This document shows, piece by piece, positions 1-61,662 of a DNA stretch of 64,000 nt. Position numbers and translations under genes: made by a program. The notes under the pieces were generated by a model that was not told the DNA's origin, ran no database searches, and saw only the letters and a list, made by a program, of their open reading frames with translations. Each line of letters opens with the position of its first letter. Position 1 is the stretch's first letter. The DNA comes from Candidatus Shapirobacteria bacterium. Its GTDB lineage: Bacteria; Patescibacteriota; Microgenomatia; UBA12405. Where the stretch lies: positions 345,399 through 409,398 of the forward strand of contig JBAYIT010000001.1 in the NCBI GenBank assembly GCA_041665485.1, given 5' to 3'.

Positions 1-944
1 AAAAGAATTTAGTTGAAGGGAAAACTATTTATGTGTTTAACGAGGTGTTTGCCCAAGAGTTAAAAAAGAGAGGGTTGGACTCGGAGGAATTAAGACAAAA
101 AATTGTAGCTAATGGGGGGAAGTTGGAGGGGGTGGAGGGGGTACCAGCAGAGTTGCTAGAGATTTATCGGACGGCGCTGGAGATTAGCCCGGAGTGGCAT
201 ATAAAATTGCAAGCAGCGTTTCAAGAACATACCGATAATGCAGTCAGTAAAACGATTAACTTTCCCAAAACAGCTACAGTTGAGGAGGTGAGGCAAGCAT
301 ACAAGCTGGCTTATGGGTTGGGAACGAAGGGGATTACTATATATAGAAGTGGAAGTAGGGAGAAGGAGATTATTCAACAAGTTCAAAAGTTAGAAAGTCC
401 GAAAAGTCCAAAAAGTGAATTGGTAGTGAAAAAGAAGACGCCGGAGGTGGCGAGAGGGGTGAGATTAAGAAAACCTTGTGACGTCGGCAAAGTTTATACA
501 TCGATATTTTTTGAAGAAGGCGATGGGCCGGTGGAAGTGTTTGTGACTTTGGGAAAGAGTGGCGGTTATATGTCTGGAGCAGCCGAGGTGACGGGAAGGT
601 TGGCGTCGTTGGCTCTTAAATATGGAGCAAATTTAGACGAAGTGGCTGACGAATTGGTGGGAATATCCTGTGGCCAGAAAGTGGGGTTGGGAAATGGAGC
701 AGTGCTATCTATGTTTGATGCGGTGGGTAAGTCGCTTTTGGAAATTTCCCGAGGGGAACAATTATCGATGTTTGAGGAAGAAAAAGTAAAGATTAGCCAG
801 AATATTTTGGGAGAAGTGAGGAGTAAGCAGGCGGAGGGTGAAAGTAAGTTTTCCTCGTGCCCCGACTGTGGCAGTCCGCTCTATGCCGAAGAGGGGTGTT
901 TTAAATGTTCTAATAGTTTTTGCGGTTATAGCAAATGTTCGTAA
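1..944 (+). CDS. nrdJ: ribonucleotide reductase, class II adenosylcobalamin-dependent, C-terminal part (5' end outside window)
   Basis: Reading frame of ORF 33..944 is open back to position 3 with no stop. Motifs TINFP and GITIYRSGSR plus terminal CxxC..CxxC zinc ribbon match B12-dependent RNR C-termini. Contains repeat-derived insert VQKLESPKSPKSELVVKK (positions 391-420). Confidence 0.75.
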   Translation, partial: KNLVEGKTIYVFNEVFAQELKKRGLDSEELRQKIVANGGKLEGVEGVPAELLEIYRTALEISPEWHIKLQAAFQEHTDNAVSKTINFPKTATVEEVRQAYKLAYGLGTKGITIYRSGSREKEIIQQVQKLESPKSPKSELVVKKKTPEVARGVRLRKPCDVGKVYTSIFFEEGDGPVEVFVTLGKSGGYMSGAAEVTGRLASLALKYGANLDEVADELVGISCGQKVGLGNGAVLSMFDAVGKSLLEISRGEQLSMFEEEKVKISQNILGEVRSKQAEGESKFSSCPDCGSPLYAEEGCFKCSNSFCGYSKCS

Positions 945-1044: not shown

Positions 1045-1527
1045 ATGTCTGTAATTACTAAGATGGGGGATGACGGGGAAAGCCGATTTTTGGGGAAAGT
1101 GCATAGTAAGGATAGTTGTTTACTGGAAACGATAGGAACTTTGGATGAAGTGCAATCAATAATTTCAGTCATCCAGTTACGAGTTACAAGTTACGAGTTA
1201 CAAAATATAGTTAAAGATTTGCAGGGGATTATGGGGGAGTTGGCCACTGGAAAACCAGTTATCGGTTACGAGTTACGAGTTATGAGTTTGGAAAAAGAAA
1301 TAGGAGAAATAGAGAAGAAGTTGCCAAAGCAAGATAAGTTTTTGAGTTTTGAGAAAGAGGGGGCGGTGTATTTGAATTGGACTAGAACGGTGGCGCGTCG
1401 AGCCGAGAGAGTTTTGGTTAAATATAACAAAAAGTGTCAGAATTTGGATCCAAATATTCTTATTTATATCAACCGATTATCTGATTATTTATTTATCCTT
1501 GCACGCGAAGTAGAATCTAAAAGTTAG
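1045..1527 (+). CDS. ATP:cob(I)alamin adenosyltransferase, PduO-type
   Basis: N-terminus MSVITKMGDDGESRFLGKVHSKD and overall size match PduO-type ATR (consensus M.ITKTGDKGET..). Sits beside the B12-dependent RNR. Two in-frame agttacg heptamer-repeat inserts (LRVTSYELQ and IGYELRVMS). Confidence 0.65.
   Translation: MSVITKMGDDGESRFLGKVHSKDSCLLETIGTLDEVQSIISVIQLRVTSYELQNIVKDLQGIMGELATGKPVIGYELRVMSLEKEIGEIEKKLPKQDKFLSFEKEGAVYLNWTRTVARRAERVLVKYNKKCQNLDPNILIYINRLSDYLFILAREVESKS
1175..1288. repeat. agttacg heptamer tandem arrays (two, in-frame inside PduO gene)
   Basis: agttacgagttacaagttacgagttac at 1175-1201 and ggttacgagttacgagttatgagtt at 1264-1288. Same family at 36245-36266 (inside sufS) and 55953-55986 (intergenic). 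Confidence 0.8.
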
Positions 1528-3250: not shown

Positions 3251-3682
3251 ATGGATGAGGTAAATGCAAAAATAACCAACAAGATTGCGAGTTATCAGAC
3301 AGCGGTTCTTAATCCTCTTTTTGCTGTTATGGATGTTTCCAATGAAGCGAAACAACACTTACTTGAGACTATATCGATGACTATTTTGGGTGACTTTTTT
3401 GTAACTATTGTTGAGGCTATTGCCGACAAAGAAAAACAGCAAAGAGCAGTAGCGATCATTAATAATGATGAATCTAAACCTGAAGATAAATTACAAGCAT
3501 TTTCAAAAATTGTACAAGAGGATAGAGAGTTGCAGAAAGTTGGGGAAAATTTTCTTGATACTAAACTACCTCAATATATAAATGATACCGTTTCGGCCTA
3601 TCTTGCCGTAGCTACTAAAGAACAGAAGGAGGCATATTTTGCCCTCGTGCAGAAAGTAGTTGACTCGACTGGTCAGGAATAG
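3251..3682 (+). CDS. hypothetical protein
   Basis: 143-aa ORF, tightly spaced after 2795 ORF. No recognisable motifs. Confidence 0.45.
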   Translation: MDEVNAKITNKIASYQTAVLNPLFAVMDVSNEAKQHLLETISMTILGDFFVTIVEAIADKEKQQRAVAIINNDESKPEDKLQAFSKIVQEDRELQKVGENFLDTKLPQYINDTVSAYLAVATKEQKEAYFALVQKVVDSTGQE

Positions 3683-3747
3683 ACAAGGATTAGTCAGGAT
3701 AGGGTGAATTGAGGTCAAGATTGAGGAAATGTTATGGGATAGGATAA
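3671..3747 (+). promoter_or_regulatory. conserved upstream module B (3 x GTCAGGA at 21-bp phase + promoter-like spacing)
   Basis: gtcag at 3672, 3693 and gtcaag at 3714. TTGAGG-N17-TTATGG follows. Upstream of ORF 3788. Confidence 0.55.
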
Positions 3748-3787
3748 GTGTGATTTCTTTTAGTTAAAAATTTTAGAATTAAAAAAT

Positions 3788-4831: not shown

Positions 4832-4891
4832 AAAATGTCTTAGGTCTTAGGTTTGGGTTTAGTTTAGAGAGGCTGTGGTATAAATTTAATT

Positions 4892-9233: not shown

Positions 9234-9310
9234 TCAGAATTGGGCAAAAAATAGTCAGGAAAGAGGCATTTAAGGTCAAGATGTTAATAATGTTATGGGA
9301 TATTATGGGG
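9232..9310 (+). promoter_or_regulatory. conserved upstream module C (3 x GTCAGGA at 21-bp phase + TTAAGG-N17-TTATGG)
   Basis: gtcag at 9233 and 9254, gtcaag at 9275. Immediately downstream of the regulator gene and upstream of ORF 9357. Confidence 0.55.
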
Positions 9311-9356
9311 GCATATGAAAAACATAGATAGAAGGTAATTTTTAAGATTTGCTACT

Positions 9357-10733: not shown

Positions 10734-10789
10734 TTCAAAAAGTCCAAAAAGTAGAAAGTCCAAAAAGTTTTGGTGGTAAAATTGGATTT

Positions 10790-10972: not shown

Positions 10973-11054
10973 ACTTCGTAAACCGTTAACCGTGATCCGT
11001 GAACCGTAAGAATCTACGAATATAGAATCTGGGGGGTGGTAAAATGAGATTTGA

Positions 11055-17485: not shown

Positions 17486-17709
17486 AGATTACAAGAGATA
17501 AGGGGTTGAAATGACGAGGAGCCACCCAACTCCTTATTCTCTTCTAATCTCTAGTTGTTAAGTTTACAACCTATATTATACATTATTTATGTCGCTTGTC
17601 AAGTTATAGGTCTATGTTTTAAAGTAATTGGTAAACGGTAACCGGTAATTGGTAAAAATATAGGGCTAGAAGATGGTTGATTAGATTTCGAGGCCTATAA
17701 AGTTTAGAT

Positions 17710-18297
17710 TTAGTAGCCTCGGGTGAGGCGACGGGCTTTGAGGGTGACCAGAGTGCCACTGAGGCTTAAAAGAGTTCCGAAGATGAGATTGGTCGAGCCG
17801 GTCTGAGGCAAGGGCTTCTTATTGTTGATTGAGCCGGAATTAGTGTAGAAGTAAAGGTTGTCGGAAGCAACTGTGCCTATGTCTGATTTGATACCAACAC
17901 TCATGTCGTTTTTGGTTAGAGTTTGGTTGACTTGAGTTTTGTCTTTAATAGTGAGGATAAAATTTTGGGTGTAGTCGGTATTGGCGGAGATTTGGGGAAT
18001 AGTAAAGACTAGTGGTGAATTGATGGAAACAGAACTTGGAAGTTTGCCGATGACTTTGACATTGGTTTGGTTGCGATTACCCAAATTTCGAACAGTTAGC
18101 TGGAGTTGGATTTGAGAGCCGGGAGGGAAAATGACTGTATTGCTATCTAGATTGTCAAAATATTGGCTTTGATTAAGGACTTTGGCTTTGAGATCGACTT
18201 GAAGATTGCGGATTTCGTCGTCAGCGAGGGCAATAGAGTTGCCCAGAGATAAGAAATAAGAGCTAAGAACTAAGAGGCCAAAGATTAATTTTTTCAT
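17710..18297 (-). CDS. LPXTG-anchored secreted protein (sortase substrate)
   Basis: N-terminal signal peptide MKKLIFGLLVLSSYFLSLG. C-terminus LPQTGSTNLIFGTLLSLSGTLVTLKARRLTRGY is LPXTG plus hydrophobic stretch plus basic tail. Confidence 0.7.
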   Translation of the reverse strand: MKKLIFGLLVLSSYFLSLGNSIALADDEIRNLQVDLKAKVLNQSQYFDNLDSNTVIFPPGSQIQLQLTVRNLGNRNQTNVKVIGKLPSSVSINSPLVFTIPQISANTDYTQNFILTIKDKTQVNQTLTKNDMSVGIKSDIGTVASDNLYFYTNSGSINNKKPLPQTGSTNLIFGTLLSLSGTLVTLKARRLTRGY

Positions 18298-21562: not shown

Positions 21563-22207
21563 GTGAAGGCGATAATAATTGCAATATTGGGGTGGTTGGG
21601 AATTTTGGGAAAGGGGGAGATGGTCAAGCCGGTGGTGATTGAGACGTTTAAACCGGCACCGACAGAAATTATTGAGCCGACTTTAGTACCGACGAAGATG
21701 GTGATAAAACTAAAACCAGTAGTAATTGGACCGAGTCAAACTCGGCTGTCGGACACTGGGCCGTGGGGAGTGGCCAAACAAGTTGGGGAGCACACTTATA
21801 CGATGAAGATTAAACTAGACGAGAGGATGGGAACGCCAAAAGAAATTCTTGAAGCCTTAAATGATTATCGGGTGAGGCGGGGGTCGCAGAGATTGACTTG
21901 GGATGATAAGCTGGCTAATTACGCTCAAAGCCGGGCGGTATATTTGGCCTCAATTAAAAATGTGGATGGGCATGCTGGATTTCAAAATTATTTAGAAAAG
22001 GAAAATGGCTTTGAAAAGCTGGGGTTTACCAAACTTGGGGAAAACATAAGTTATGGCTACAAAATGGAGGGGGTGCATTTAATTGAATGGATTTATGCTG
22101 GGGACAAACCACATGATGACAACCAGACGAATAATGATTGGAACTATGTGGGAATTGGAGTGGAGGGGACAGCAACGTGTTTGATTTTTGGAACCGGTCG
22201 GTCATAA
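21563..22207 (+). CDS. CAP/SCP-domain (PR-1-like) secreted protein
   Basis: N-terminal hydrophobic segment. C-terminal region LNDYRVRRGSQRLTWDDKLANYAQSRAVYL...GHAGFQNY resembles the CAP-domain consensus. Confidence 0.5.
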   Translation: MKAIIIAILGWLGILGKGEMVKPVVIETFKPAPTEIIEPTLVPTKMVIKLKPVVIGPSQTRLSDTGPWGVAKQVGEHTYTMKIKLDERMGTPKEILEALNDYRVRRGSQRLTWDDKLANYAQSRAVYLASIKNVDGHAGFQNYLEKENGFEKLGFTKLGENISYGYKMEGVHLIEWIYAGDKPHDDNQTNNDWNYVGIGVEGTATCLIFGTGRS

Positions 22208-22270
22208 GAATCTACGAATTTAGGAATCTAGAATCTAGAATAGGAAACGGTAAACTGGTAAAGTTTTAGA

Positions 22271-23497: not shown

Positions 23498-23956
23498 TTG
23501 GCTATGGAGCCGATGCAAGTGATGGTGATAGCTGGTTTACTAATGGTAATGGCGGAATTGTTGATGGGAATTCAGACAGGATTTGATCTGGTGCTGGGGG
23601 GAAGTATTTTAATAATTTCTGGCTTTGCCGGGATGTTGGGGGGTGGATGGCAGTTGAGTATTGGCCTGGCGATTATAATGAGTATTGTCTATATTGCTTA
23701 TGGCCGAGGGTTGGTGAAATCAAAATTAATAATTACAACCACCCACACCAATATTGATAAATTAATTGGCCAGAAGGGAGTGGTGGTTAGATCAATTACA
23801 CCGGATACAGCCGGGCTGGTGAGACTGATGGATGAAGACTGGCGGGCGGTGAGCGATGAGGTGTTGTATGAAAAAGACAGGGTGGAGGTGGTGACAGTGG
23901 AGGGGGTGAGCTTGAGAGTCCAAAAAGTAGAAAGTCCAAAAAGTTCAAAAAGTTAG
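23498..23956 (+). CDS. NfeD-family membrane protein
   Basis: Three N-terminal TM helices followed by OB-fold-like C-terminal region IGQKGVVVRSITPDTAGLVRL. Upstream partner of the SPFH gene. C-terminal VQKVESPKSSKS tail is derived from the aaagtcc/aaaaagt repeat (23918-23960). Confidence 0.65.
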   Translation: MAMEPMQVMVIAGLLMVMAELLMGIQTGFDLVLGGSILIISGFAGMLGGGWQLSIGLAIIMSIVYIAYGRGLVKSKLIITTTHTNIDKLIGQKGVVVRSITPDTAGLVRLMDEDWRAVSDEVLYEKDRVEVVTVEGVSLRVQKVESPKSSKS

Positions 23957-23974
23957 AAAGTTAAAAATAAAAAT

Positions 23975-24823: not shown

Positions 24824-24863
24824 AAACTAAGAATTTACGAATCTAGGAATTTACGAATCTAGA

Positions 24864-28207: not shown

Positions 28208-28217
28208 GACGATGTGG

Positions 28218-29087: not shown

Positions 29088-29118
29088 TGAAAAAAATTTT
29101 AAATTTTAAATTTTAAAA

Positions 29119-30069
29119 TCAAGAAAAGTATTTTATAACATCTTGGCAGGAGGGTAGGTGGAGGTCTTGAGAATAACCACAATTATATTTTGGATCACAA
29201 CAACCGGAACAGGAAATTTTTAATTTCTCCGTCTGAGACGGACTTCGCTTCGCTTCGCAATTTTCAATTTTCAATGAATGTTCAAATTTATTAATTTCAA
29301 AATTATTAAATAGTTTGCAGTTTTGACAAGTGGAAAGTAAATTTGAAAAATCAGTAACTATTTTTTTAATTGGATCGGAGAGTTTGCCGATAGAAATAGG
29401 GGATTCGCAACAACTATAAATTAGGCCGTTTGACTGAAGAGAGATTTGGGAGCAGCCTAAATTTTTTCCTGGAAAAGTGGGGTAATTTTGTTTAATGTTG
29501 ATAACTTGGGCGGGAGTGAGAGAGCCTAAACGGTCGGTGAGATAGGTAACGGTAACTGGTAATCGGTAATCGGTAATCAGTGATCTGGGAAAAGAGTCCT
29601 TATACTTATATGAATCTTTAGTAATTAGAAAAAAGATACCAACGGGGAAGCCGAGGGAAAGGGCGTGGTTGATAAAGTCGATAGATTTGGCAAAATTGCC
29701 CCCCCCGCGATTTTTGTCGTGAATTTCCTTGGGGCCATCAAGAGAGACCAGAAGCTGGCAGTTTTGAGGATCATTGATTTTATCGAGTTGGTCGATAGTG
29801 CCATTAGTAATAATGGTGATAAATATGCCAAGTTTGAGGAGATTATTGACGAGGCAGGGAAAGCTTTTAAGAGTGAAGACTTCACCACCGCAAAAAGTAA
29901 TAGATCCTAGATTTTGGTTTTTAGATGTTAGATAGGAACGATATCTTTTAACAAAACCTAGAATTTGCTTGTTGGTGAGGATATTTTTAGTCTTGCGGGT
30001 GTAGCAGTATTTGCAGGCAAGGTTACAGGATTCGAGAGGAGAGATATAAAGACTAGTTAGCATGGCCAA
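29119..30069 (-). CDS. radical SAM enzyme with SPASM/twitch-like C-terminal Cys cluster
   Basis: N-terminal CNLACKYCY (Cx3Cx2C) after 14 residues. CGGE SAM-binding glycine motif. C-terminal CSQISLQSNGLIYSCC (Cx8Gx4C) and CQNC...C...SCSGCC...C clusters. Two repeat families are inserted in-frame (29230-29275 and 29545-29585). Probable ATG at 30063, 8 nt after the rpmG stop. Confidence 0.7.
   Translation of the reverse strand: MAMLTSLYISPLESCNLACKYCYTRKTKNILTNKQILGFVKRYRSYLTSKNQNLGSITFCGGEVFTLKSFPCLVNNLLKLGIFITIITNGTIDQLDKINDPQNCQLLVSLDGPKEIHDKNRGGGNFAKSIDFINHALSLGFPVGIFFLITKDSYKYKDSFPRSLITDYRLPVTVTYLTDRLGSLTPAQVINIKQNYPTFPGKNLGCSQISLQSNGLIYSCCESPISIGKLSDPIKKIVTDFSNLLSTCQNCKLFNNFEINKFEHSLKIENCEAKRSPSQTEKLKISCSGCCDPKYNCGYSQDLHLPSCQDVIKYFS
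29545..29585. repeat. ggtaat[ct] heptamer tandem array (in-frame inside radical SAM gene)
   Basis: ggtaacggtaactggtaatcggtaatcggtaatcagtgatc encodes ITDYRLPVTVTYLTD on the minus strand. Family members at 17625-17658, 22246-22265, 43258-43296, 43575-43600, 56471-56510, 61218-61258 and 61624-61662. Confidence 0.8.
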
Positions 30070-30259: not shown

Positions 30260-30296
30260 GAGGGTATTGTACTACAAAATTTTAAATTTGAAATTT

Positions 30297-31154
30297 TTAA
30301 TTTTTAAATTCTAAGGTTTCGATGATTTTGTTGTCGAAAAGGGTTTTGGCCAGGGTGTCGGAGAAGAATTGGGCGCCGAGTTCGGAGGGGTGGAGGTTGT
30401 CGGCCTTGGAGATAAGTTCGGGAAGGCCTTCGTCGTTTTTGAGGCTATTGGTGAAGGCATTGGCTAGGGGGAATTTTTGTGATTGAGCAAAATTAATGAT
30501 GTTTTGAAGATAGGCCCTGATGGTTTTGGTCTTTTCTATTTTTTCGAGATTGGTGAGATGAATATCTTTAATGCCAGAAGCAAAATTAAGAGAATTAGGG
30601 GCAATGGTGGCAGTGAGAACGATTTTGGTGGCAGGTAATTCTTTTTGGATGGTAGAGGTAATATTGCTTAGAGCTTGCCATTGACGATCAAAACCGGATT
30701 GAGTATTACCAAAATTGTTGTAGGCAAATGATTCAACGACGATGATATCTGGGTTGAGAGAGAGGAGGGAAGGATAATCCTGATCTTTATATTGATAATT
30801 ATTTTTGAGCCGGTGGAGAGCGTATTCGATATTAGAGGCGCCGACGCCATAGTTAATAATCTTGAATTTTTTATTGGGGAAATATTGTTCGAGGGCGGTT
30901 TCTAAGCTGGAGATGTCTGGCCCAAGGGTATCGATCATGGAGTCGCCCAAAACGGCAATGGTGATAATCTGCTGGTTTTCTTGAATACCGCCAATGCCAT
31001 GAATTACGGAGTTAGGTCGTCGATCATCGATCGTCGTTTGGATGCCCAAGACCTGAGGTGTTTCAATGTTTTGAACTAGAGCGATTGGGGTGGGCATGGG
31101 TAGAGAATAGTGAGGTTGATAAGCCTCGATAAGTTGATAGAAGAGAGGAATCAT
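30297..31154 (-). CDS. SGNH/GDSL-family hydrolase
   Basis: GDS block IAVLGDSMID and C-terminal DNLHPSELG (DxxH) are typical of SGNH hydrolases. Confidence 0.65.
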   Translation of the reverse strand: MIPLFYQLIEAYQPHYSLPMPTPIALVQNIETPQVLGIQTTIDDRRPNSVIHGIGGIQENQQIITIAVLGDSMIDTLGPDISSLETALEQYFPNKKFKIINYGVGASNIEYALHRLKNNYQYKDQDYPSLLSLNPDIIVVESFAYNNFGNTQSGFDRQWQALSNITSTIQKELPATKIVLTATIAPNSLNFASGIKDIHLTNLEKIEKTKTIRAYLQNIINFAQSQKFPLANAFTNSLKNDEGLPELISKADNLHPSELGAQFFSDTLAKTLFDNKIIETLEFKN

Positions 31155-31468: not shown

Positions 31469-31480
31469 GCTTTTTTATTG

Positions 31481-31577: not shown

Positions 31578-31615
31578 AAAATATAACCTCTCAATTCAAA
31601 TATAGCACGCGGGGG

Positions 31616-33353: not shown

Positions 33354-34076
33354 GTGTTGAAAATAGGAAATTTGGAAGTCAAAATTGAAGGGAAGAAGGT
33401 ATTGGCCGGTCTTAATTTGGAAATCAAAGATGGAGAGGTGGTGGCGGTGATGGGGCCAAATGGGAGTGGTAAGTCAACTTTAGCCTATACTTTGGCAGGA
33501 AAATACCCAAATACAGGTAAAATTTTATGGAACAAAAATGATATTAGTGATTTGAAGCCGGAAGAAAGAGCCCATCTTGGCATTTTTTTGGCCAATCAAT
33601 CCCCGGTGGCGATTCCCGGGTTGTCGGTGAATAGATTCTTGTGGAATTTATATAAAGTCCGAAAAGTAGAAAGCCCAAAAAGTTTGGGGGTGATGGAGTT
33701 TAGAAAGTGGATCGAGAAGAAGGTGGAGAATCTAGGGATAGGTGGGGAATTGTTAAAGCGGGGACTGAATGATGGTTTTTCGGGCGGGGAAAGAAAGAAG
33801 ATGGAAATTTTGCAAATGCTAGTACTGGAGCCAAAGTTGGTAATTTTGGATGAAATTGATTCGGGGCTTGATGTTGATGCCCTAAAAAGAGTGACTCAAG
33901 TAGTTGTAGACGAGGTAAAAAATAGAAAAATGGCAGTGTTGGTAATTACTCATTACAGCCGGATTTTGAAGTATTTGAAACCAGATAGAGTGGCAATTTT
34001 GAAAGCAGGAAAAATTGAAAGAACGGGAGGATGGGAACTAACGGAAGAAATTGAAAGAGATGGCTATGAAAAATAA
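33354..34076 (+). CDS. sufC: Fe-S cluster assembly ATPase SufC
   Basis: Walker [15 protein letters not shown] signature FSGGERKK, Walker [13 protein letters not shown]. Contains in-frame repeat-derived insert [12 protein letters not shown] (33655-33690). Confidence 0.85.
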
Positions 34077-35804: not shown

Positions 35805-37023
35805 AATTATGGTGACAATGACCAATTTCCAAAATTACAAACATTTTTTTCCCATCTTTAAAAACAATCCAGATTTGGTGTACTTGGACAGCGGGGCGAC
35901 GACGTTGAAGCCCCAAATAGTGCTCGATAAAATGATGGAGTATTACACTAAATATAGCGCTAATATTCATCGGGGGATTTATGGAATATCAGAAATGGCA
36001 ACGGAGGAGTATGAGAAGTCGAGAGAAAAACTGCGGAAGTTTATTGGTGGACAGGATGGGCAGGTAATATTTACTGGTGGGACAACTGAAGCAATAAATT
36101 TGGTGGCCAGGGGGTGGGGAGATAAAAATTTAGTAGAAGGTGAGGAAATAGTGGTAACAGAAATGGAACACCATTCTAACTTAATTCCATGGCAAGAGTT
36201 GGTAAAGCGCAAAAATTTAAGACTTAAATTCATGACAGTTAACAATTACGAGTTACGAGTTACGAATTTTGGAAAAGTTATTGATAAAAAAACTAGACTA
36301 TTGGCGATAACGCAGGTGAGTAATGTGACCGGGTCAGTTAATCCAATTAAAAAAATAATTGAAGAGGCGAGAAAAATAAATCCGAAAATAGTGGTGGTGG
36401 TGGACGGAGCCCAGGCAGTGGCTCACAGGCCGGTTGACCTGCAGGACTTGGGGTGTGATTTTTATGCATTTTCAGGGCATAAAATGTATGGACCGACAGG
36501 AATTGGAGTGTTGTGGGCAAAAGAAGAAAGATATAAGGAGATGGAACCGATTAAATTTGGCGGGGGGATGATTGCTGAAGTGGGGCTTCTGGAAAGCACA
36601 TTTTCCAGTGGGGTGGAGAAATTTGAGGGGGGCACACCGCCGATTGCCGAAGCTATTGGGATGGGAGTGGCAGTCGATTTTATAGAAAAAATCGGAATGA
36701 CTAAAATCAAAAAACATGAGGAGGAATTAACGGCTTATTTAAGGTTTAAATTAGAAAAAGTTGCCGGTATTAAAACTTTTTCGGCGTGGCAAAGCGGAAT
36801 AGTGGCGATGGAGATCGCCGGAGTTCATCCACACGATGTGGCCCAAATTCTGGCTGACAGGGGAGTATGTGTGCGAGCAGGGCATCATTGCGCTATGCCA
36901 CTTCATAAAGCGCTGGGGGTAGAGGCAACGACACGGGTAAGTTTGGGGATTTATAATACCAAAGAAGATATAGATAAATTAGTTGAGGGACTGGAAGCAG
37001 TTAAGAAAATTTTTAATATCTAA
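35785..37023 (+). CDS. sufS: cysteine desulfurase SufS
   Basis: LDSGATTLKPQIV, HRGIY, PLP-binding FSGHKMYGPTGIGVLW and C-terminal RAGHHCA active-site Cys. In-frame agttacg repeat insert VNNYELRVTNF (36245-36266). Confidence 0.85.
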   Translation: MKLSWRKIMVTMTNFQNYKHFFPIFKNNPDLVYLDSGATTLKPQIVLDKMMEYYTKYSANIHRGIYGISEMATEEYEKSREKLRKFIGGQDGQVIFTGGTTEAINLVARGWGDKNLVEGEEIVVTEMEHHSNLIPWQELVKRKNLRLKFMTVNNYELRVTNFGKVIDKKTRLLAITQVSNVTGSVNPIKKIIEEARKINPKIVVVVDGAQAVAHRPVDLQDLGCDFYAFSGHKMYGPTGIGVLWAKEERYKEMEPIKFGGGMIAEVGLLESTFSSGVEKFEGGTPPIAEAIGMGVAVDFIEKIGMTKIKKHEEELTAYLRFKLEKVAGIKTFSAWQSGIVAMEIAGVHPHDVAQILADRGVCVRAGHHCAMPLHKALGVEATTRVSLGIYNTKEDIDKLVEGLEAVKKIFNI

Positions 37024-41000: not shown

Positions 41001-41870
41001 TCAAATAGTATCAAAATTTGATTTTATAGTATCCCAAGAAGTTGGTTTTTTGCCTTCAATTTGGACAATTAGTGGTTCGAGATTTGTGATTTTCAAACGC
41101 TCTTTTTTGGGAGTAATCGTCCAGATTCCAGGCCAGGGAACGAAGGCGCGAAAGAGATGGTCGAGATCAGTATTGAATTTGGGATGAATAATTTGGTGAT
41201 TATTTAGATATTTTTGAAAAAACTGCCAATCGATGAAGCCATCGTCGCGAGTGATTTGACGGGCATAGATTAGATGTTGGATGTTAGATCCTAGATCCTG
41301 GGGAGCAAGATGATAATTACCGGTGGCAATTTGGGGAAGAAGTTCGAGTGATTTTTGGCCAGCCAAACAGTAAAGAGAATCATAGAGAGCCTCACGGGTG
41401 TCGGTGGGTATTATGGGAATGGGATATTGGGCGATAATTTCGCCACGATCGAATTGGCTTGACATCTTGATAAAGGTAATGCCGGTTTCAGATTCGCCAT
41501 TGATAATGGCCCACTCGACTGGGAAACGACCAGCGTAGTTGGGGAGGAGAGATTGATGAATGTTGATAGCCATAACCTTGGAGAAATTGAGCCATTTTTC
41601 GTTGATCAATTTTCCAAACCCTGAAACTAAAATAAAATCGGGCCGAGTCAAACTCGATGGGATTTGATCAAGAGTTTCGAGGGGAAAACATGGGATTTTG
41701 TTGTCTTCGGCGTAAATTTGAGTGGGGTTTTTAGTGAGAACTAATTTGTCGCCGGGGCGGGGCGGGGTGGTGACAACGCCGATAATATCGAATTGGTGGC
41801 TTTGGGCAAGAAGGTCGAGAGTGAGGACGGAATAGTGTTGGAATGAGCCAAAAAAAATAATTGAATTCAT
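41001..41870 (-). CDS. fmt: methionyl-tRNA formyltransferase
   Basis: N-terminal IIFFGSF..DIIGVVTTPPRP, INIHQSLLPNYAGRFPVEWAIINGESETGIT and the C-terminal domain fit Fmt. In-frame gatctta-family repeat insert (41270-41305). Confidence 0.85.
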   Translation of the reverse strand: MNSIIFFGSFQHYSVLTLDLLAQSHQFDIIGVVTTPPRPGDKLVLTKNPTQIYAEDNKIPCFPLETLDQIPSSLTRPDFILVSGFGKLINEKWLNFSKVMAINIHQSLLPNYAGRFPVEWAIINGESETGITFIKMSSQFDRGEIIAQYPIPIIPTDTREALYDSLYCLAGQKSLELLPQIATGNYHLAPQDLGSNIQHLIYARQITRDDGFIDWQFFQKYLNNHQIIHPKFNTDLDHLFRAFVPWPGIWTITPKKERLKITNLEPLIVQIEGKKPTSWDTIKSNFDTI

Positions 41871-41904: not shown

Positions 41905-42459
41905 GTGAGACGAATTTTGACTTATCCTGACCCAATTTTGAGAACTAAAACGAAAGAAGTTAAGGCGGTTGACGAGAAACTGCTTGGTGAAATTAATGAG
42001 TTGAAGGAGATTTTATTAAAGAGTGAAAATGGGGCGGGGCTGGCGGCTACTCAAATTGGGTCGGCGGGCAGGTTTTTTGGATTGAAAAATTTGAGTAAAA
42101 AAAAGACGGAAGTTTTTATTAATCCAAAAATTACCAAATTTTGGGGAGAAAAGACATATCCTCGAATTATAAAAAACAAGGATGAGTCGGAAGATTTTCT
42201 GGAAGGTTGTTTGTCGTTTCCCAATTATTACGGCACAGTGAAGAGATATTTAAAGATAGAGGTGGAGTGGGATGAAATTAGGAGTAAGGAACTTGGTACG
42301 AGGAAAAAGGTGTTGGAAGGGTTTGAGGCGATTGTTTGGCAACATGAAGCAGATCATTTGGATGGGATTTTGTTTATTGACCATATAAAGCGGGACGGGG
42401 GAAAGTTGTATTGGTGGGAAGGAGAAACTAAAAAAGAGATATTAGATCCTAGATTTTAG
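41905..42459 (+). CDS. def: peptide deformylase
   Basis: GAGLAATQIG, EGCLSFP and HEADHLDG are the three canonical PDF motifs. Confidence 0.9.
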   Translation: MRRILTYPDPILRTKTKEVKAVDEKLLGEINELKEILLKSENGAGLAATQIGSAGRFFGLKNLSKKKTEVFINPKITKFWGEKTYPRIIKNKDESEDFLEGCLSFPNYYGTVKRYLKIEVEWDEIRSKELGTRKKVLEGFEAIVWQHEADHLDGILFIDHIKRDGGKLYWWEGETKKEILDPRF

Positions 42460-44393
42460 ATGTTAGATTTTTTGATTTTGTCGAGGTACTTTTGAGCATC
42501 AATGTTGGTGGGGGCAAATTTGAGGGTAGATTCAAATAGTTGACGGGCTTCGGAGTATTTTTTTTGATTAAAGTAGATTTTGCCGAGATTAAAAAGGGCG
42601 TGGTCGTAGTTGGATTTGAGAGCAATGGCTTGTTGATAGTATTTAGTGGCGGTGGTTTCGTCTTTATTAAGTTCGTTAAAGTAGCCTAGGAGATAAAAGC
42701 TTTTGGCGTCGGTGGGGGCTAATTTAACGACTTGCTCTAGGCTATTAATTGAGGCAGAGATCATTTTAGGGTCGAGGGCCGAGAGATAAAAATAATTTTG
42801 GGCTGATTGCTTCCAAAAATTAGTATTGGCGGGAGAGATTTCTAGGGCGAGTTGGGTGAATTGAAGGGATTGACTGGAATAGAGCTTTTTTGACTCCGGA
42901 TTAGAAATGGCGACGGCTAACTTAGCGGTAATTGAGCCGGCGGAGATTAAATATTCCGGTTCGTTTGGCGATAGTTTTAGAGCTAAAATAATTTGAGTCA
43001 AGGCAGGTTGAATTTGGTTTTGGGAGTCAAGAGTTGAGGCTTTGGCAAAACAGATATCGGCCAAAAACAATTTGGAAATTTGGAGTAAGAGAAATAAGGG
43101 GATAATTAAGACTAAAAACAAAAAAGATCGTCGATCGTCGATCGTCGATGGTCGATTATTTTCATTTAGAACGAGGGCGGGGAGGAGAAAGAGGTAGAGA
43201 GAGGTGATGACGATGGAAAAGCCAGTGAGGTTGGTGATGAGAATTGACAAGAAAGAAATGGTAATTGGTAATCGGTAATTGGTAATCGGTAATTTGAGAA
43301 ATAAATATAGAATAGAAAAAATAAGAATAAGATAGGTGAGGAGGCCGAAGGTGCCGGTGGTGGCGGAAAAATTAAGATATTCGTTGTGGGCTTTGTTGTA
43401 GAGGAAATCCCATTCGGAGGTGAGATTGTGAGACGAAGGCCTGGTCCAATAATAGGAATAAGCAAAGGTTTCGACACCGGTGCCAAAGAGTGGGTAGTGG
43501 CGCCAGAGATCGAAAGCGCCTTGCCAGACGATTTTGCGAATATCCTGACTAGGAGTGATATTGATGTTTTGTGACTCGTGATTAGTGATCGGTGATCCGG
43601 TTTTAGAAGGGAACACGAGGTCTTTGATGGGATTGTTGATGATGAGAGTTAGAGTCAAAAGTAAAAAGTAAAAAGTGAAAAGTGAAAGCTTATTTTTTTG
43701 TTTTTGAATTAGAGAAAGGACAAAAAATAAAAACAAACAAACAAGGGCGGTGAGGATGCCGGTTTTGGATTTGGTAGAGAGAAGACAAAAATAGAAACAA
43801 GAACTAAGAGCTAAGAAATAAGATTTATTAATAAAACTCTTTGAATTTAGAAATTTAAAGAGAGAAAAGGGGAGGAGGAGGCAGAGATAGGCGGATAACC
43901 AATTGGGCTGGCCGAAAGTGGAGAAAACTCGTGATTGAACATCCTGAACCCAGTAGGTTTTATCAATGCCAAAGTGTTGGGCTATGCCATAGAGAGAAAC
44001 TATAAATCCAGAGATTAGGGAATAATTAATAATTTTGGATTTTAATTCTTCGGTAATGTGAACAGACAAAATAAAATAGAGAAGAACAAAACAGACAGTG
44101 GAAATTAGGCCACCATTGAGGCGGGAATAGTAACCAAAAAGTGAAGTGTGAATGTCGATGGAAAAAATAGTAGAAATAACTTGGGAAGTTAAAAACAAAA
44201 GAAGGGGAATGGTGAGAAGGGTGGAGCGAAGGAGGTGGTTCTTACCTTTAATCCAGCCATAAAGATGTAAAGTAAGAATGGTAAGGGTGGCAATATAAAC
44301 AAAATACATTTTGGGGACTTCAAAAAGCTCGGAATTTAGGGGGGAATAGAGGAGAGGGGTGAGAAAAAAGAGAAGACAGTAGAGAAAGTTCAT
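42456..44393 (-). CDS. O-antigen ligase (Wzy_C)-family polytopic membrane protein with C-terminal TPR repeats
   Basis: About 10 TM helices, Wzy_C-like WQGAFDLWRHYPLFGTGVETF, and C-terminal TPR-like repeats. Contains in-frame inserts of three repeat families plus a (cgatcgt)4 heptamer microsatellite at 43125-43160. Confidence 0.6.
   Translation of the reverse strand: MNFLYCLLFFLTPLLYSPLNSELFEVPKMYFVYIATLTILTLHLYGWIKGKNHLLRSTLLTIPLLLFLTSQVISTIFSIDIHTSLFGYYSRLNGGLISTVCFVLLYFILSVHITEELKSKIINYSLISGFIVSLYGIAQHFGIDKTYWVQDVQSRVFSTFGQPNWLSAYLCLLLPFSLFKFLNSKSFINKSYFLALSSCFYFCLLSTKSKTGILTALVCLFLFFVLSLIQKQKNKLSLFTFYFLLLTLTLIINNPIKDLVFPSKTGSPITNHESQNINITPSQDIRKIVWQGAFDLWRHYPLFGTGVETFAYSYYWTRPSSHNLTSEWDFLYNKAHNEYLNFSATTGTFGLLTYLILIFSILYLFLKLPITNYRLPITISFLSILITNLTGFSIVITSLYLFLLPALVLNENNRPSTIDDRRSFLFLVLIIPLFLLLQISKLFLADICFAKASTLDSQNQIQPALTQIILALKLSPNEPEYLISAGSITAKLAVAISNPESKKLYSSQSLQFTQLALEISPANTNFWKQSAQNYFYLSALDPKMISASINSLEQVVKLAPTDAKSFYLLGYFNELNKDETTATKYYQQAIALKSNYDHALFNLGKIYFNQKKYSEARQLFESTLKFAPTNIDAQKYLDKIKKSNI
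43258..43296. repeat. ggtaat[ct] heptamer tandem array (in-frame in Wzy-like gene)
   Basis: gtaattggtaatcggtaattggtaatcggtaatt encodes LPITNYRLPITI on the minus strand. Confidence 0.8.
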
Positions 44394-50083: not shown

Positions 50084-50193
50084 CCAAATTCCAATTTTCA
50101 ATTTTCAATGAATTTATTAATTTTAAAAATTTTCAATTGAAAATTAATACATTAGAATATTCATTGGATTTTGGAATTTGAAAATTGAAAATT

Positions 50194-50844
50194 ATGACTT
50201 TGGCGATTGGTAAATTAGTTAGAGATTTCTCAGAACTATTAAAACAGATACCGGATTGTCCCCATAAATTATATTGTTTGGGAAATATTGATTTACTGCG
50301 AGAAAAGAAAATAGTGGCGGTGGTGGGGAGCCGAAAAATGAGTGATTATGGTAAGCTCATGGTGGAAAAATTGGTTGTTGAGGCGGTGAAAAACGATTGG
50401 GTAATTGTGGCGGGGATGGCCCTGGGGGTGGATGCGTGGGTGCACCAGGTTTGCCTTGACAATAAAGGGAAAACGATAGCAGTTTTAGCGGGAGGAGTGG
50501 AAAGGCCTAGGCCGGCAGCTAACCAACAAATATATCAAAGTATAATAGACGGGGGTGGTTTAGTTATTTCAGAAGACAGGGAAGGGAGTGTTATAGATAA
50601 GAATAGCTTCTTAAGAAGAAATCGAATTGTGGCCGGATTGAGCTTGGGGGTGGTGGTGATTGAGGGAGAGAGGAGAAGTGGAACTTTGAATACGGCTGGT
50701 TGGGCGGGGAAATTTGGGCGAGAAGTGATGGCTATTCCGGGAAGGATTGGAGATAGCCTGTCAGAAGCACCGAATTGGCTTATTAAGAATGGGGCGGGAT
50801 TAGTGGAAAATTTCAGCGATGTCGCTGAAATTTTAGGAAACTAG
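50194..50844 (+). CDS. dprA: DNA processing protein DprA (Rossmann domain)
   Basis: VVGSRKMSDYG, IVAGMALGVDAWVHQ, VLAGGVE and IEGERRSGTLNTAGWAGKFGREVMAIPG match the DprA core. Lacks an N-terminal SAM domain. Confidence 0.8.
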   Translation: MTLAIGKLVRDFSELLKQIPDCPHKLYCLGNIDLLREKKIVAVVGSRKMSDYGKLMVEKLVVEAVKNDWVIVAGMALGVDAWVHQVCLDNKGKTIAVLAGGVERPRPAANQQIYQSIIDGGGLVISEDREGSVIDKNSFLRRNRIVAGLSLGVVVIEGERRSGTLNTAGWAGKFGREVMAIPGRIGDSLSEAPNWLIKNGAGLVENFSDVAEILGN

Positions 50845-50949
50845 AAACTAGTAACTAGATACAAGATGTTGACAGGGGATGATAAGATAGACGACAATGC
50901 TTGAAGTTCATCAAGTAGAAAGTTAGAAAGTTTATCAAGTAGAAAATTC

Positions 50950-53686: not shown

Positions 53687-53727
53687 GATCTTAGATCTTG
53701 GATCTTAGTTCTTAGATTCTAGATTAC
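53687..53727. repeat. gatctta heptamer tandem array
   Basis: ggatcttagatcttggatcttagttcttagattctagattac at the 3' end of the ATPase gene. Same family at 60048-60080, 42445-42476 and 41270-41305. Confidence 0.8.
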
Positions 53728-55943: not shown

Positions 55944-56004
55944 TTATAGAACAGTTATCAGTTAAGAGTTACGAGTTACGAGTTGATTTTTAATTTAAAG
56001 ACAT

Positions 56005-56441: not shown

Positions 56442-56552
56442 TTTAACCAGACAGGATCCGAAGAAAAAACACTGGTAATCAGTAATTGGTAATCAGTAAC
56501 TGGTAACTAGAAACAAGAAAAAAGTTAAAAATTTAATTTAATCCGCCAGTGG

Positions 56553-59135: not shown

Positions 59136-60047
59136 ATGGCAAAAAAAATTGTTAAGACAAAAACGGTTAATCGAACCGGTAAAAAAATCGTTAAGAAAGC
59201 GTTGGTAATTAAAGAAAAAAAAGAAAAGGTGTTGACGGCGGAGAAGATTAAGTCTTTGAACGAGAAAACTTTAGGAACAAGGAAAGAGGTACAAGGTACA
59301 AGGAAAGAGGAATTGGAAATTAAGGCAAAAGATGAGAAGAAGATACTTGAGGACAAAAAATATAATTTGACGGTGGGGCTGAAGGATTTATTGGCGGCAG
59401 GATGCCACCTGGGGCATAAAGTCAGTAAAACTAACCCCAAAGCCAAGGGAAATCTTTACAAAGCAATTGACGGAATTCAGGTGTTTGATTTGGTTAAAAC
59501 GATGGCCGGGCTAGAGGCGGCCTGCAATTTTGTCTACAACTCCAAGAGGAACGGTAAACAGATTGTGTTGGTGGGAACTAAGAGACAAGCTAAAGAAGTG
59601 GTTAAGAGAGTGGCGCTGGACGCCGGAGTGGCCTACATTACCAACCGATGGCTGGGAGGAACGATAACTAATTGGGACCAGATTAGAAAAACGATCAAGC
59701 GTTATTGGGATTGGAAAGAAGGCTTGGAGCAAAATAAATTCACCAATAAAACCAAAAGAGAGCTTTTGGAAATGAGTAAAGAATTAGTTCGGATTGAGAA
59801 AAATATCGGTGGATTGGCTAAGTTGGATAAACTATTTGATGTGATGTTTGTGGTTGATGCCGGTGGAGAAAAGACGGCGGTAAAAGAAGCAAGTTTGACT
59901 AAAGTGAAGATAGTGGGAATGGTGGACACTGACACTGATCCGGCTAAAGTTGACTTTCCGATTCCGGCCAATGATGACAATGTTAAATCAGTGACTTTAA
60001 TAGTTGAGGAAATTGGGAAGGCTATTAAGGCGGCAGGGGTCAAATAG
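59136..60047 (+). CDS. rpsB: 30S ribosomal protein S2 with about 90-aa Lys-rich N-terminal extension
   Basis: Core LLAAGCHLGHKVSKTNPKAKGNLY, QIVLVGTKRQAKEVVKRVALDAGVAYITNRWLGGTITNW and FVVDAGGEKTAVKEA match S2. The extension contains a direct duplication (LGTRKEVQGTRKEE). Confidence 0.85.
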   Translation: MAKKIVKTKTVNRTGKKIVKKALVIKEKKEKVLTAEKIKSLNEKTLGTRKEVQGTRKEELEIKAKDEKKILEDKKYNLTVGLKDLLAAGCHLGHKVSKTNPKAKGNLYKAIDGIQVFDLVKTMAGLEAACNFVYNSKRNGKQIVLVGTKRQAKEVVKRVALDAGVAYITNRWLGGTITNWDQIRKTIKRYWDWKEGLEQNKFTNKTKRELLEMSKELVRIEKNIGGLAKLDKLFDVMFVVDAGGEKTAVKEASLTKVKIVGMVDTDTDPAKVDFPIPANDDNVKSVTLIVEEIGKAIKAAGVK

Positions 60048-60102
60048 ATCTTAGATTTTAGATCTTAGTTCTTAGAAATAATATATTAATTTTAATTAAA
60101 AC

Positions 60103-61217: not shown

Positions 61218-61258
61218 CATTGGTAATTGGTAATTGGTAATCTGTAATCTGTGATAGG
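61218..61258. repeat. ggtaat/tctgtaa heptamer array (left flank of four-helix-bundle gene)
   Basis: attggtaattggtaattggtaatctgtaatctgtgatagg. Inverted counterpart at 61624-61662 (gattaccaattaccaattactgattactgattactaatc). Confidence 0.8.
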
Positions 61259-61625
61259 AAATAAATTGGTTGATTTTTATGATCTAGAAGCATGGAAGGA
61301 AGGACATAAGTTGGCTCTGTTGGTGTATGGAATGGTTAGTAAATTACCATCAGACGAAAAATATGGTTTGTCAGATCAACTAAGAAGAGCTTCAGCTTCG
61401 GTAACGGCAAATATTGCCGAGGGTTTTGGTAGGTTTCATTTTAATGACAAAATACACTTTTTCTATTTATCGAGAGGTTCGGTGAAAGAAGTTCAGAGTT
61501 TTTTATTGCTAGGGAGAGATTTGAAGTATTTGAGTGTAGTAGATGTTAATATTGTTTGGACCCAATCAAAGTCGGCTGAAAAATTAATTAACGGACTAAT
61601 AAGGTCAACAGAAAAACAAAAATGA
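61251..61625 (+). CDS. four-helix-bundle protein (TIGR02436, 23S rRNA IVS protein / Avd-like)
   Basis: GTG start. YDLEAWKEGHKLALLVY...LSDQLRRASASVTANIAEGFGRF...FLLL matches the family signature. Confidence 0.8.
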   Translation: MIGNKLVDFYDLEAWKEGHKLALLVYGMVSKLPSDEKYGLSDQLRRASASVTANIAEGFGRFHFNDKIHFFYLSRGSVKEVQSFLLLGRDLKYLSVVDVNIVWTQSKSAEKLINGLIRSTEKQK

Positions 61626-61662
61626 TTACCAATTACCAATTACTGATTACTGATTACTAATC
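61624..61662. repeat. inverted heptamer array (right flank of four-helix-bundle gene)
   Basis: Reverse complement pairs with 61218-61258 over gattaccaattaccaatta. Confidence 0.8.

Follow-up and report, generated by a model that had tools for sequence, protein, structure and literature searches.

The 64,000-nt stretch of a Candidatus Shapirobacteria genome analysed here (hereafter, the window), from a Microgenomates-group lineage of the candidate phyla radiation (CPR), carries at 1045-1527 a gene for a 160-aa PduO-type cob(I)alamin adenosyltransferase (PF01923, E = 1e-33, Pfam). Two short tandem arrays of 7-nt units lie within this gene, and similar heptamer arrays recur across the window, in spacers between genes as well as in frame within conserved housekeeping genes, as the initial annotation had noted. 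The identities it gave to the genes concerned (NrdJ, SufC, SufS, Fmt, Wzy/TPR, radical-SAM, NfeD, RseP and PduO) all hold in Pfam, and tandem arrays are present at essentially every site where it had placed one, whether by Tandem Repeats Finder (TRF; score cut-off 30), by a mismatch-tolerant lag-7 scan or, for 43575-43600, by direct reading. Its description of all families as heptameric fits most of them, but the agt[ct]Naaa/aaagtcc arrays have a TRF period of 9, or of 8 and 26 (394-416, 10732-10768, 23917-23967), and its SufC example (33655-33690) is weak, falling below the TRF cut-off.

The preference for a period of 7 is both strong and specific. Exact period-7 runs of at least 17 bp (at least 2.5 copies) number 16 in the window, compared with 0.15 in dinucleotide-preserving shuffles, and exact runs at any other period within 2-18 never exceed two. 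The mismatch-tolerant scan recovers 29 arrays, against 0.7 in shuffles, with lags 14 and 21, the multiples of 7, likewise raised and the remaining lags at background; TRF reports rows of period 7 or 14, in which 7-nt copies stand head to tail. These 29 arrays are small, at 16-38 bp or 2.3-5.3 units. Unrelated genomes hold 9 exact period-7 runs per 1.37 Mb and about 1.5 tolerant arrays per 64 kb (about 1.33 Mb scanned). Once the arrays are masked, the lag-7 match fraction is 0.2677, comparable to that at lags 5, 8 and 10, and two-unit proto-arrays show no enrichment in the masked window. The signal thus comes from discrete arrays making up about 2.5% of the window, and the idea of a weak 7-nt periodicity throughout the sequence, or of a graded series of proto-arrays, can be rejected. 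At Rfam gathering thresholds the window yields five tRNAs only, with no known RNA family on the arrays.

The arrays draw on a limited set of units. The same unit, in any rotation and on either strand, occurs in 10 array pairs more than 200 bp apart, where 0.57 would be expected and 500 simulations gave at most 5, and 37 array pairs differ by at most one mismatch (10.5 expected); to call the families unrelated, as had been done at first, was too strong. The main families are AGTTACG, GGTAAT[CT]/GGTAAAC, TAGATCT/GATCTTA, GAATCTA/GAAACTA, AAATTTT/CAATTTT and TAAGAAC, while GATCGTC, CGTGAAC and AGTAAAA are each seen once in the window. Several units share a TTAC/GTAA core, on a reading of the unit list that carries no significance test. 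IS608-type Y1 transposases target TTAC, which we take as a coincidence only.

Nearly half of the arrays (13 of 29) lie wholly inside genes, namely those for PduO, SufS, Fmt, RseP, ribosomal protein S2, the radical-SAM protein, the Wzy-like protein and the open reading frame (ORF) 17710-18297. The other 16 fall in spacers or at gene edges, within the 6.2% of the DNA that lies outside the ORF map, which amounts to about 4 arrays per kb there against 0.22 per kb in coding DNA. Among 15 intergenic arrays, 10 overlap the upstream stop codon or start no more than 5 nt from it, and seven contain stops in all three frames on the strand of the upstream gene. Some operon spacers consist almost entirely of array (61218-61250, 61626-61662, 29088-29118, 24824-24863, 22208-22270). 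The in-gene arrays measure 27, 24, 31, 18, 35, 20, 27, 31, 35, 35, 25, 17 and 19 bp and have fuzzy edges, so the earlier statement that only lengths divisible by 3 are seen in genes does not stand.

Alignment with homologs allowed us to ask whether the coding arrays add residues or replace them. In PduO, segment 2 (1265-1288) matches IPYKVTIV of 3KE4 residue for residue, shows no length change relative to PDB homologs or relatives, and obeys the family pattern [ED]-x-R-[IV]-x-x-[LMV]-E of 17 relatives. Segment 1 (1175-1201) sits at a site that is length-variable among the same 17 relatives, most of which lack it, and in the PDB alignment homologs of solved structure have a longer connection there. 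An AlphaFold model of the protein (predicted local distance difference test, pLDDT, 85) places segment 1 in loop 44-49 and the first turn of helix 2, and segment 2 in the first two turns of helix 3. The NYELRVTN segment of SufS aligns to DGELNIED and DGTISLED of PDB entries with a gap of at most 1 aa, keeping the alternating hydrophobic pattern, and the site differs by at most 1 aa in length from PDB SufS and from L005, a comparison sequence for SufS and SufC (L085 to L231 denote sister-species contigs). VRKVESPKS of SufC is free of gaps against E. coli SufC and 2 aa longer than in L005; Fmt gains 4 aa relative to PDB Fmt, just behind the N-terminal formyltransferase domain; and KLKVES of RseP pairs with KLKILR of the Aquifex enzyme, with 2 aa added nearby and KLK retained. 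The S2 site has no gaps against its ortholog, and four of the five sites in the Wzy-like gene are likewise gap-free. In sum, PduO segment 2, SufS, S2 and four Wzy sites differ in length from orthologs by no more than 1 aa, and RseP, SufC and Fmt gain 2-4 aa. Gaps that MAFFT places in repeat regions can be misplaced, the net length being fixed by the flanking anchors.

The truly length-variable regions are only PduO segment 1 and the NrdJ linker. NrdJ has three length-variable linkers, with different repeat-coded peptides in four species. The window organism's own NrdJ (L001, upstream of the window start) carries a 7-aa (21-nt) insertion, PSVDGQR, relative to L085 and L086, the size that three heptamer units would have. 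Elsewhere the arrays retain conserved native residues (KLK in RseP, E-x-R-V in PduO and, for SufS, its hydrophobic pattern), and array-coded positions are loops, linkers, helix ends, membrane segments and tails. Judged from these alignments, the arrays mostly overwrite native codons with repeat peptides such as SYELRVT or LPITNYR, with little or no added length. The proposal of lineage-specific insertions in surface loops is borne out as to place and lineage specificity, since the segments do fall in variable loops, linkers and termini and their sequence is lineage-specific, but most are not insertions; the accompanying comparison with mobile insertion of the kind seen in Rickettsia fails on the same absence of net length and on the lack of visible conserved termini. 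In PDB alignments unrelated bacteria lack the array peptides at these positions, the reverse of what native sequence shared across bacteria would give.

The S2 protein of the window matches, at 100% identity, an NCBI entry of a Candidatus Shapirobacteria MAG. The closest species-representative genome is just 58% identical in SufS, and we therefore sought closer relatives by exact-protein look-up, which returned sister contigs (L085, L086, L088, L090, L230, L231) of 69-81% DNA identity. All carry heptamer arrays with an overlapping vocabulary, including the reused units AATTACC, AACCGTG, AAATTCC and AACTCGT (L085-L091, L230-231), and have a GC skew of 0.38-0.45. Over 20,616 aligned columns (75-81% identity), array columns number 571 in the window and 553 in the relatives, and 311 of them coincide, compared with 14.7 expected; in 2000 circular shifts of the array columns the maximum was 90, none reaching 311. 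At co-located arrays the orthologs share 0.71 identity, less than the aligned blocks do (0.75-0.81), and the lag-7 self-identity of these arrays reaches 0.90 for the window and 0.80 for the relatives. Low identity between orthologs together with high identity between neighbouring units is the signature of concerted evolution in a 7-nt register, usually without gaps.

Individual genes illustrate this pattern. In rpsB, a 17-bp two-unit array reads AGGTACAAGGTACAAGG in the window and AGGAACTAGGAACTAGG in L231 without gaps, both units bearing the identical two substitutions, with two amino acids and two synonymous sites changed as a result. In rseP, AAGTTGAAAGTTGAAAGTT of the window, an (AAGTTGA)n array, faces AAGTTACGAGTTACGAGTT of L231, a (GAGTTAC)x3.3 array, at matching codons and again without gaps. 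A gap-free swap of (AGTTACG)n for (AATTACC)n is found between species in PduO, whose segment 1 is (AGTTACG)n in the window, a decayed copy in P0002, (AAATCAA)n in L085, (CAATTAC)n plus 16 extra residues in L086 and nothing in L090. At segment 2 the GAGTTAC array is identical down to synonymous sites in species as far away as 59% protein identity, with six of six identical-residue columns using the same codons in P0007 (background 0.48), and L086 has (CTTCAAY CTAGAAW)x2 over those eight codons. The Wzy-like gene has four segments that are array-coded in both the window and L230, two of them with different units of equal length. There, 43653-43687 is (AGTAAAA)n in the window and a (TAAGAAC)-type array at the matching place in L230, and 43799-43823 is (AAGAACT)n against (GTGAACT)n of equal length; the L230 unit is partly different, without gaps, at 43259-43293, and of the same family, with inter-species differences, at 43575-43600. 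At 43126-43156 the L230 ortholog has no array and is 3 aa longer.

Spacers show both turnover and conservation, and some differ between species in length and in the arrays they contain. At rpsB|tsf there is TAGATCT in the window, GAATCTA and AAATTTT in L231, and CAATTTC and CAAATTA in L230. The frr|IVP array is identical to that of L231 at 34 of 34 bases, although the locus overall is about 80% identical, and the IVP|rseP array is identical at 30 of 34 with an unchanged number of units. The two sister species carry inverted heptamer arrays at tsf|frr, where the window has an unrelated hairpin element; sitting where it does, this element may be mobile. Taken together, these comparisons demonstrate a DNA-level process in 7-nt register that endures at given sites in different species, carries variants from unit to unit and is filtered so that genes keep their frame and length.

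Two further arrangements of spacer arrays were noted. The PBP|dprA spacer (50084-50193) is an imperfect palindrome of about 110 nt built from inverted (CAATTTT)n and (TTGAAAA)n arrays (folding z-score -2.48), and the L230 spacer at this position is only 21 nt long. The 23S_rRNA_IVP/Avd-like four-helix-bundle gene at 61251-61625 (124 aa, PF05635, E = 4e-30) is flanked by inverted-complement arrays, (ATTGGTA)n upstream and (ATTACCA)n downstream, an arrangement kept in L231; in the transcript, these arrays could pair across the whole ORF. No reverse transcriptase was found among the genes called nearby that would link the Avd-like gene to a diversity-generating retroelement.

Table 1. Tandem arrays of the window by position: repeat unit and copy number, coordinates, coding strand of the gene for in-gene arrays, and context
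Unit and copies	Coordinates	Strand	Context
9-nt unit (AAAGTCCAA)x2.6, not a heptamer	394..416	+	NrdJ linker, ESPKSPKS; TRF
(AGTTACG)x3.9	1175..1201	+	PduO-type adenosyltransferase, QLRVTSYELQ (aa 44-53); sequence AGTTACGAGTTACAAGTTACGAGTTAC
(GTTACGA)x3.4	1265..1288	+	PduO, GYELRVMSL (aa 74-82); sequence GTTACGAGTTACGAGTTATGAGTT
(GTCTTAG)x2.3	4837..4852		intergenic, 5 nt past stop codon
9-nt unit (AGTCCAAAA)x4.3	10732..10768		gene end / spacer
(CGTGAAC)x4.4	10977..11007		intergenic; unit also in sister locus L086 3734-3756
(GGTAAAC/GGTAACC/GGTAATT)x3.7	17630..17655		intergenic, convergent genes either side
(AGAGATA/AGAAATA)x4.4	18245..18275	-	close to N-terminus of ORF 17710-18297
(GAATCTA), units 7-8 nt	22207..22241		fills spacer behind stop at 22207
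8-9-nt units, AAAGTCC/AAAAAGT family	23917..23967	+	NfeD C-terminal tail, running across NfeD stop codon
8/16-nt units (CTAGGAATTTACGAAT)x2.2	24827..24862		fills spacer, convergent genes
(AAATTTT)x3.4	29094..29117		one nt downstream of radical-SAM stop codon
(CAATTTT)x2.6	29258..29275	-	radical-SAM gene
(GGTAATC)x5	29551..29585	-	radical-SAM gene, encodes RSLITDYRLPVT
(AAATTTT)x5.3	30277..30314		overlaps stop codon of gene 30297-31154
weak 8-9-nt repeat	33655..33690	+	SufC, VRKVESPKS; below TRF score cut-off 30
(TTACGAG)x2.9	36246..36265	+	SufS, NYELRVTN
(GATGTTA/TAGATCC)x3.9	41273..41299	-	Fmt, QDLGSNIQHL
(TAGATCY/TAGATTT)x3.7	42443..42468		overlaps stop codons of two convergent genes
(GATCGTC)x4.4	43126..43156	-	Wzy-like gene, NRPSTIDDRRS
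(GGTAATT/GGTAATC)x5	43259..43293	-	Wzy-like gene, encodes KLPITNYRLPITI
(GTGATnn)x3.7	43575..43600	-	Wzy-like gene, GSPITNHESQ; direct reading
(AGTAAAA)x5	43653..43687	-	hydrophobic segment of Wzy-like gene
(AAGAACT)x3.6	43799..43823	-	Wzy-like gene, SYFLALSSC
(CCAATTT/CAATTTT)x3.7	50084..50109		begins right after stop codon; left arm of inverted array pair
(TTGGAAT/TTGAAAA)x4.3	50164..50193		right arm of inverted pair, overlaps dprA start; absent in L230
(GAAACTA)x3.1	50837..50858		overlaps dprA stop codon
(GATCTTA)x4.1	53687..53715		8 nt downstream of stop of gene 53724-55943
(CAGTTAT/GAGTTAC)x4.7	55952..55984		upstream of gene 53724-55943; first units resemble TCAGTTA (reverse complement of TAACTGA)
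(ACTGGTAATCAGTA)x2.6 then (GTAACTR)n	56471..56524		intergenic
(AGGTACA)x2.4	59287..59303	+	ribosomal protein S2 (rpsB), EVQGTR
(TAGATCT/TAGATTT)x4.4	60045..60075		supplies rpsB stop codon, fills rpsB|tsf spacer
(ATTGGTA)x3.3 + (ATCTGTA)x1.6	61219..61252		nearly whole frr|IVP spacer
(ATTACCA)x2.7 + (ATTACTG)x2.9	61625..61658		fills IVP|rseP spacer; first part is inverted complement of 61219-61241
(AAGTTGA)x2.7	62173..62191	+	RseP PDZ region, KLKVESF

Tandem organization, the period-7 excess, recurring families, enrichment in non-coding DNA and a lineage vocabulary place these arrays among the bacterial heptanucleotide simple-sequence repeats (SSRs). The STRR heptanucleotide sequences of heterocystous cyanobacteria, reportedly described by Mazel and colleagues in 1990 with units CCCCAGT, TTGGTCA and CAACAGT, resemble them in having tandem 7-nt units, few dispersed recurrent families, a lineage-specific vocabulary, and a mechanism and function that are not established. 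The arrays of the window differ in their CPR host, in their units (AGTTACG, GGTAATY, TAGATCT, GAATCTA, AAATTTT and others), in that nearly half are in frame inside conserved genes and, as far as we could find, in the length-neutral concerted turnover at orthologous sites reported here. According to later summaries of a 2007 survey, no class of long SSR is more abundant in many bacteria than heptanucleotide repeats, and slippage of the polymerase by about 7 nt was suggested as an explanation (Mrazek 2007, via PMC4679880; PMC4692102).

Two better-studied heptamer classes also invite comparison. TAACTGA repeats of marine Beggiatoaceae, cyanobacteria and Bacteroidetes comprise 2-6 heptamers and lie chiefly between genes, at their boundaries; read forward, they give stops in three frames and often overlap the upstream stop, and only the reverse is read through ORFs, as LSVISYQ (MacGregor 2015, PMC4679880). 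The L085 PduO gene likewise carries AGTTATC, a rotation of the reverse complement of TAACTGA, encoding ISYQ at 3461-3492. The arrays of the window do not belong to that family, the nearest unit, AGTTACG, differing at two of seven positions, apart from two degenerate CAGTTAT units at 55952; where TAACTGA repeats have one dominant unit, mostly just upstream of starts, and ORF copies mostly in hypothetical proteins or protein ends, ours have many families, lie mostly just downstream of stops, and occur within the folded SufS, PduO, S2 and RseP. The GGGNATC repeats of Xanthomonas and Nostoc lie near stop codons, contain G-tracts, form G-quadruplexes and prefer four units (Rehm 2015, PMC4692102). 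No unit of the window contains GGG and no four-unit preference is seen, which sets the arrays apart from this class as well.

Rickettsia palindromic elements (RPE) are palindromes of roughly 100-150 bp that are scattered, not tandem, and lengthen the encoded protein by a net insert. The arrays of the window share with them the presence of repeat DNA in frame inside conserved genes at protein-tolerated positions, but as direct repeats of 16-38 bp with no self-complementarity within single arrays on direct reading, and mostly no length change, they are not RPE. The coding palindromes of Nematomorpha mitochondrial genes are long inverted repeats in animal mitochondria, unlike the 7-nt tandem arrays of a bacterium described here (PMC6649704). 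We also asked whether AGTTACG stands out globally or has spread horizontally. At least 120 metagenome contigs, of 27-69% GC and without skew, contain (AGTTACG)x3, which in 48 of these lies in a frame that stays open for 150 codons or more; in a viral collection it gives 8 hits, compared with 1 and 6 for two shuffled-unit controls. Because the control counts are of the same order, the breadth of AGTTACG reflects the general abundance of heptamer repeats, and we dropped the idea.

Our preferred explanation, which we consider probable though by no means certain, is that these heptanucleotide SSRs are subject to slippage-type homogenization in a 7-nt register, filtered by selection, and are not inserted mobile elements. 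Such a process would create short arrays of 2.3-5.3 units and go on homogenizing them, perhaps by replication slippage, or by transient misalignment of adjacent units followed by realignment, equivalent to gene conversion within the array; variant units would spread through an array, which would then evolve in concert, and selection would remove changes that break the frame or harm the protein. Arrays could accumulate freely in the non-coding DNA (about 6%), often becoming the whole spacer and supplying or abutting the stop codon. Within genes they would be possible only in an orientation with an open reading frame, survivors would be limited to frame-keeping changes (net length unchanged or a multiple of 3), and the positions occupied would be loops, linkers, helix ends, membrane segments and tails. 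Both the molecular mechanism of homogenization and the selective neutrality of the arrays are what we infer from these patterns.

Several points weigh against this explanation. Slippage cannot be fast, since the number of units is constant in four samples and, between species, in the frr|IVP and IVP|rseP spacers. The four samples are nearly clonal (99.98-100% identical overall), which makes their equal copy numbers a weak test. Slippage by a single unit would shift the frame of a gene, and length-neutral homogenization would need paired gain and loss or templated substitution. Random slippage in place does not predict a limited and shared set of units, and where one orthologous site holds different families, whole arrays could have been replaced. 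Conservation of 34 of 34 bases in frr|IVP and of six of six codons in PduO segment 2 exceeds what neutrality would give, a hint of function or of strong homogenization. The relatives compared number only five or six, on short contigs, and the gene map is a greedy ORF map (76 genes, 93.8% coding) rather than a curated annotation.

Among the alternatives, an origin by chance, as a by-product of base composition or codon usage, or by misassembly deserves next to no credence. The composition of the window is extreme (G 29.5%, C 13.1%) and could inflate low-complexity matches, yet the shuffles leave 0.15-0.7 arrays where 16-29 are observed and period 7 alone is affected, and a 7-nt period cannot arise from protein-level repeats. 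Independent assemblies from four samples are 100% identical over the compared stretches, bar one N run and one single-base indel, and their agreement means that the arrays are not assembly artefacts; chance and artefact can be taken as already refuted. Highly improbable, too, is that the arrays are phase-variable contingency loci that switch genes by gain or loss of one unit, like the 7-bp repeats upstream of HMW adhesin genes in Haemophilus. Heptanucleotide phase variation is known in Haemophilus, the unit is not a multiple of 3, and arrays do occur in the Wzy-like surface-polysaccharide gene and in likely 5' regions, but genes such as rpsB, sufS and fmt cannot sensibly be switched off, the arrays are short, and copy number, the quantity that defines such loci, is the same in the four nearly clonal samples and between species at 61219 and 61625. 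No strain-level copy-number polymorphism was found among these samples, the lone apparent 11-nt indel being a run of N.

It is also decidedly unlikely, in our estimation, that the arrays are preformed micro-elements, comparable to RPE or to cyanobacterial small dispersed repeats, which spread by copy-and-paste or overwrite their targets through ectopic gene conversion from same-family arrays, landing on native sequence that happens to be similar. The restricted vocabulary common to several species, the occupation of single orthologous sites by different families (both PduO segments, RseP, Wzy, rpsB|tsf), the lack of a proto-array continuum, and the appearance of the AGTTACG unit in four different native contexts with E-L-x-V-type residues retained would all suit such an origin. 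Against it stand the absence of net insertion at most sites and the array edges, which on direct reading show no conserved termini, target-site duplications or palindromes and decay gradually into degenerate units; concerted change is seen even in the two-unit rpsB array, where no foreign array is necessary, homology between families is generally too short and mismatched for ordinary RecA-mediated conversion, and no transposase is linked to the arrays, the lone transposase-like ORF being a degraded RAYT-like remnant. Functional cis-elements, whether spacer modules with three-frame stops or DNA or mRNA sites for a heptamer-binding factor of cold-shock or S1 type, with the coding copies as by-products, we regard as rather unlikely. 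They would account for the closeness of intergenic arrays to stop codons (10 of 15), the three-frame stops (7 of 15), the operon spacers that are nearly all array, and the conservation of frr|IVP and of synonymous sites in PduO segment 2, and both GGGNATC and TAACTGA repeats have been reported near gene ends and Bacillus subtilis CspB as binding heptamer repeats (PMC4679880, PMC4692102). Short spacers, however, make closeness to stop codons partly trivial, and the classification is biased in that stop-free arrays tend to be absorbed into ORFs; arrays in essential enzymes have no obvious regulatory logic, a candidate binding factor is lacking, and with three sets of families at rpsB|tsf in three species and a hairpin replacing the arrays at tsf|frr in the window, sequence-specific recognition is unlikely at those sites.

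A stronger version of homogenization in place, which we put forward as a tentative possibility, is that a dedicated or lineage-specific process rewrites DNA in a strict 7-nt register, neutrally in length and by templated conversion between adjacent units, even in rpsB, sufS and pduO, where it would outweigh protein constraint at tolerant positions, and that it is perhaps tied to CPR replication with extreme G/C strand disparity. The GC skew of the window lies between +0.29 and +0.46 in every 4-kb block (1-64000), independent of gene orientation. Similar G/C disparity in the Microgenomates order UBA1400 has been attributed to possible unidirectional replication (PMC7143001); the present case comes from a MAG labelled Shapirobacteria.

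Several other repeats and sequence features accompany the arrays. The hairpin element mentioned above (GATAAnTTTTTGCAG...CTGAAAAATTATC, roughly 90-110 nt with a GC-rich centre) has three copies in the same orientation, at 945-1044, 31469-31615 and 60553-60665, with folding z-scores of -1.75, -3.22 and -3.65 and no Rfam match. A REP-like GC-rich palindromic element (ACGTCATCGCGAGGCCGAAGGCCGTGGCGATCTCG...CGCAATGACGT) lies at 28120-28217, 55995-56095 and 62716-62760 and at 8005-8164 of L230, where it is 91% conserved, above the surrounding DNA; its folding z-scores are -3.75 and -4.61, in a genome otherwise poor in C. The strongest tandem repeat of the window, a 24-nt unit present 5.2 times at 19869-19993 (TRF score 206; about five copies of GNGNIGKG), is contained in the short ORF 19742-20170, which has no match in Pfam or PDB and whose C-terminal motif VIMPNHMHGII matches NCBIfam NF047646, the REP-associated tyrosine transposase (RAYT), below threshold (E = 4e-5, 23 bits, cut-off 80). 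The ORF is possibly the remains of a RAYT gene, as would suit the REP-like hairpins. A link between the arrays and the ORF was rejected, the match to the HUH region being only this sub-threshold one.

Three genes of unassigned function share a conserved upstream motif some 55 nt long, TAGTCAGGA-N-TTGAGGTCAAGAT-N-TGTTATGGGATA (2689-2794, 3683-3787, 9234-9356), which looks like a common promoter with an operator, or a leader. The 791-aa minus-strand ORF 24864-27239 contains low-complexity repeats (25203-25400, 26519-26595) with periods of 6-30 nt, whose units, GGGGTT, TGGGAG and ACC-type on the plus strand, are unrelated to the heptamer arrays. Finally, in the comparison of the window with L093, a 1-nt indel is the sole between-sample difference over 5.2 kb, and it probably accounts for a GH39-family ORF (62761-63927) of 388 aa in the window compared with 458 aa in JGI sample 3300037810.

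In conclusion, the arrays are a known kind of feature, and what is new is the number of unit families, the placement of nearly half of the arrays in conserved genes, and the way in which arrays stay at orthologous sites as their units switch in concert without change of length. Among the top-ranked literature results, none paired heptamer-repeat terms with CPR or Microgenomates, or with concerted evolution, and we found no report of length-neutral concerted turnover inside housekeeping genes. These results extend the heptanucleotide-repeat phenomenon to a CPR lineage. With about 94% of the genome coding, nearly half of them sit in alignable conserved genes, whose orthologs serve as a built-in ruler; fixed sites and concerted unit change without indels constrain the mechanism far more than intergenic repeats do. 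Should ordinary slippage and selection suffice, the window would offer a clean and useful example rather than a surprise. If specific templated rewriting is true, it would represent a new mode of bacterial sequence evolution, and these small, gene-dense genomes would be a natural system in which to learn why 7 nt is favoured in bacterial long SSRs, a question dating from the STRR description of 1990 and the SSR survey of 2007. DNA-level repeat dynamics can dictate loop and helix-end residues in proteins such as SufS, PduO and S2, with consequences for alignment, phylogenetics and protein annotation in CPR genomes.

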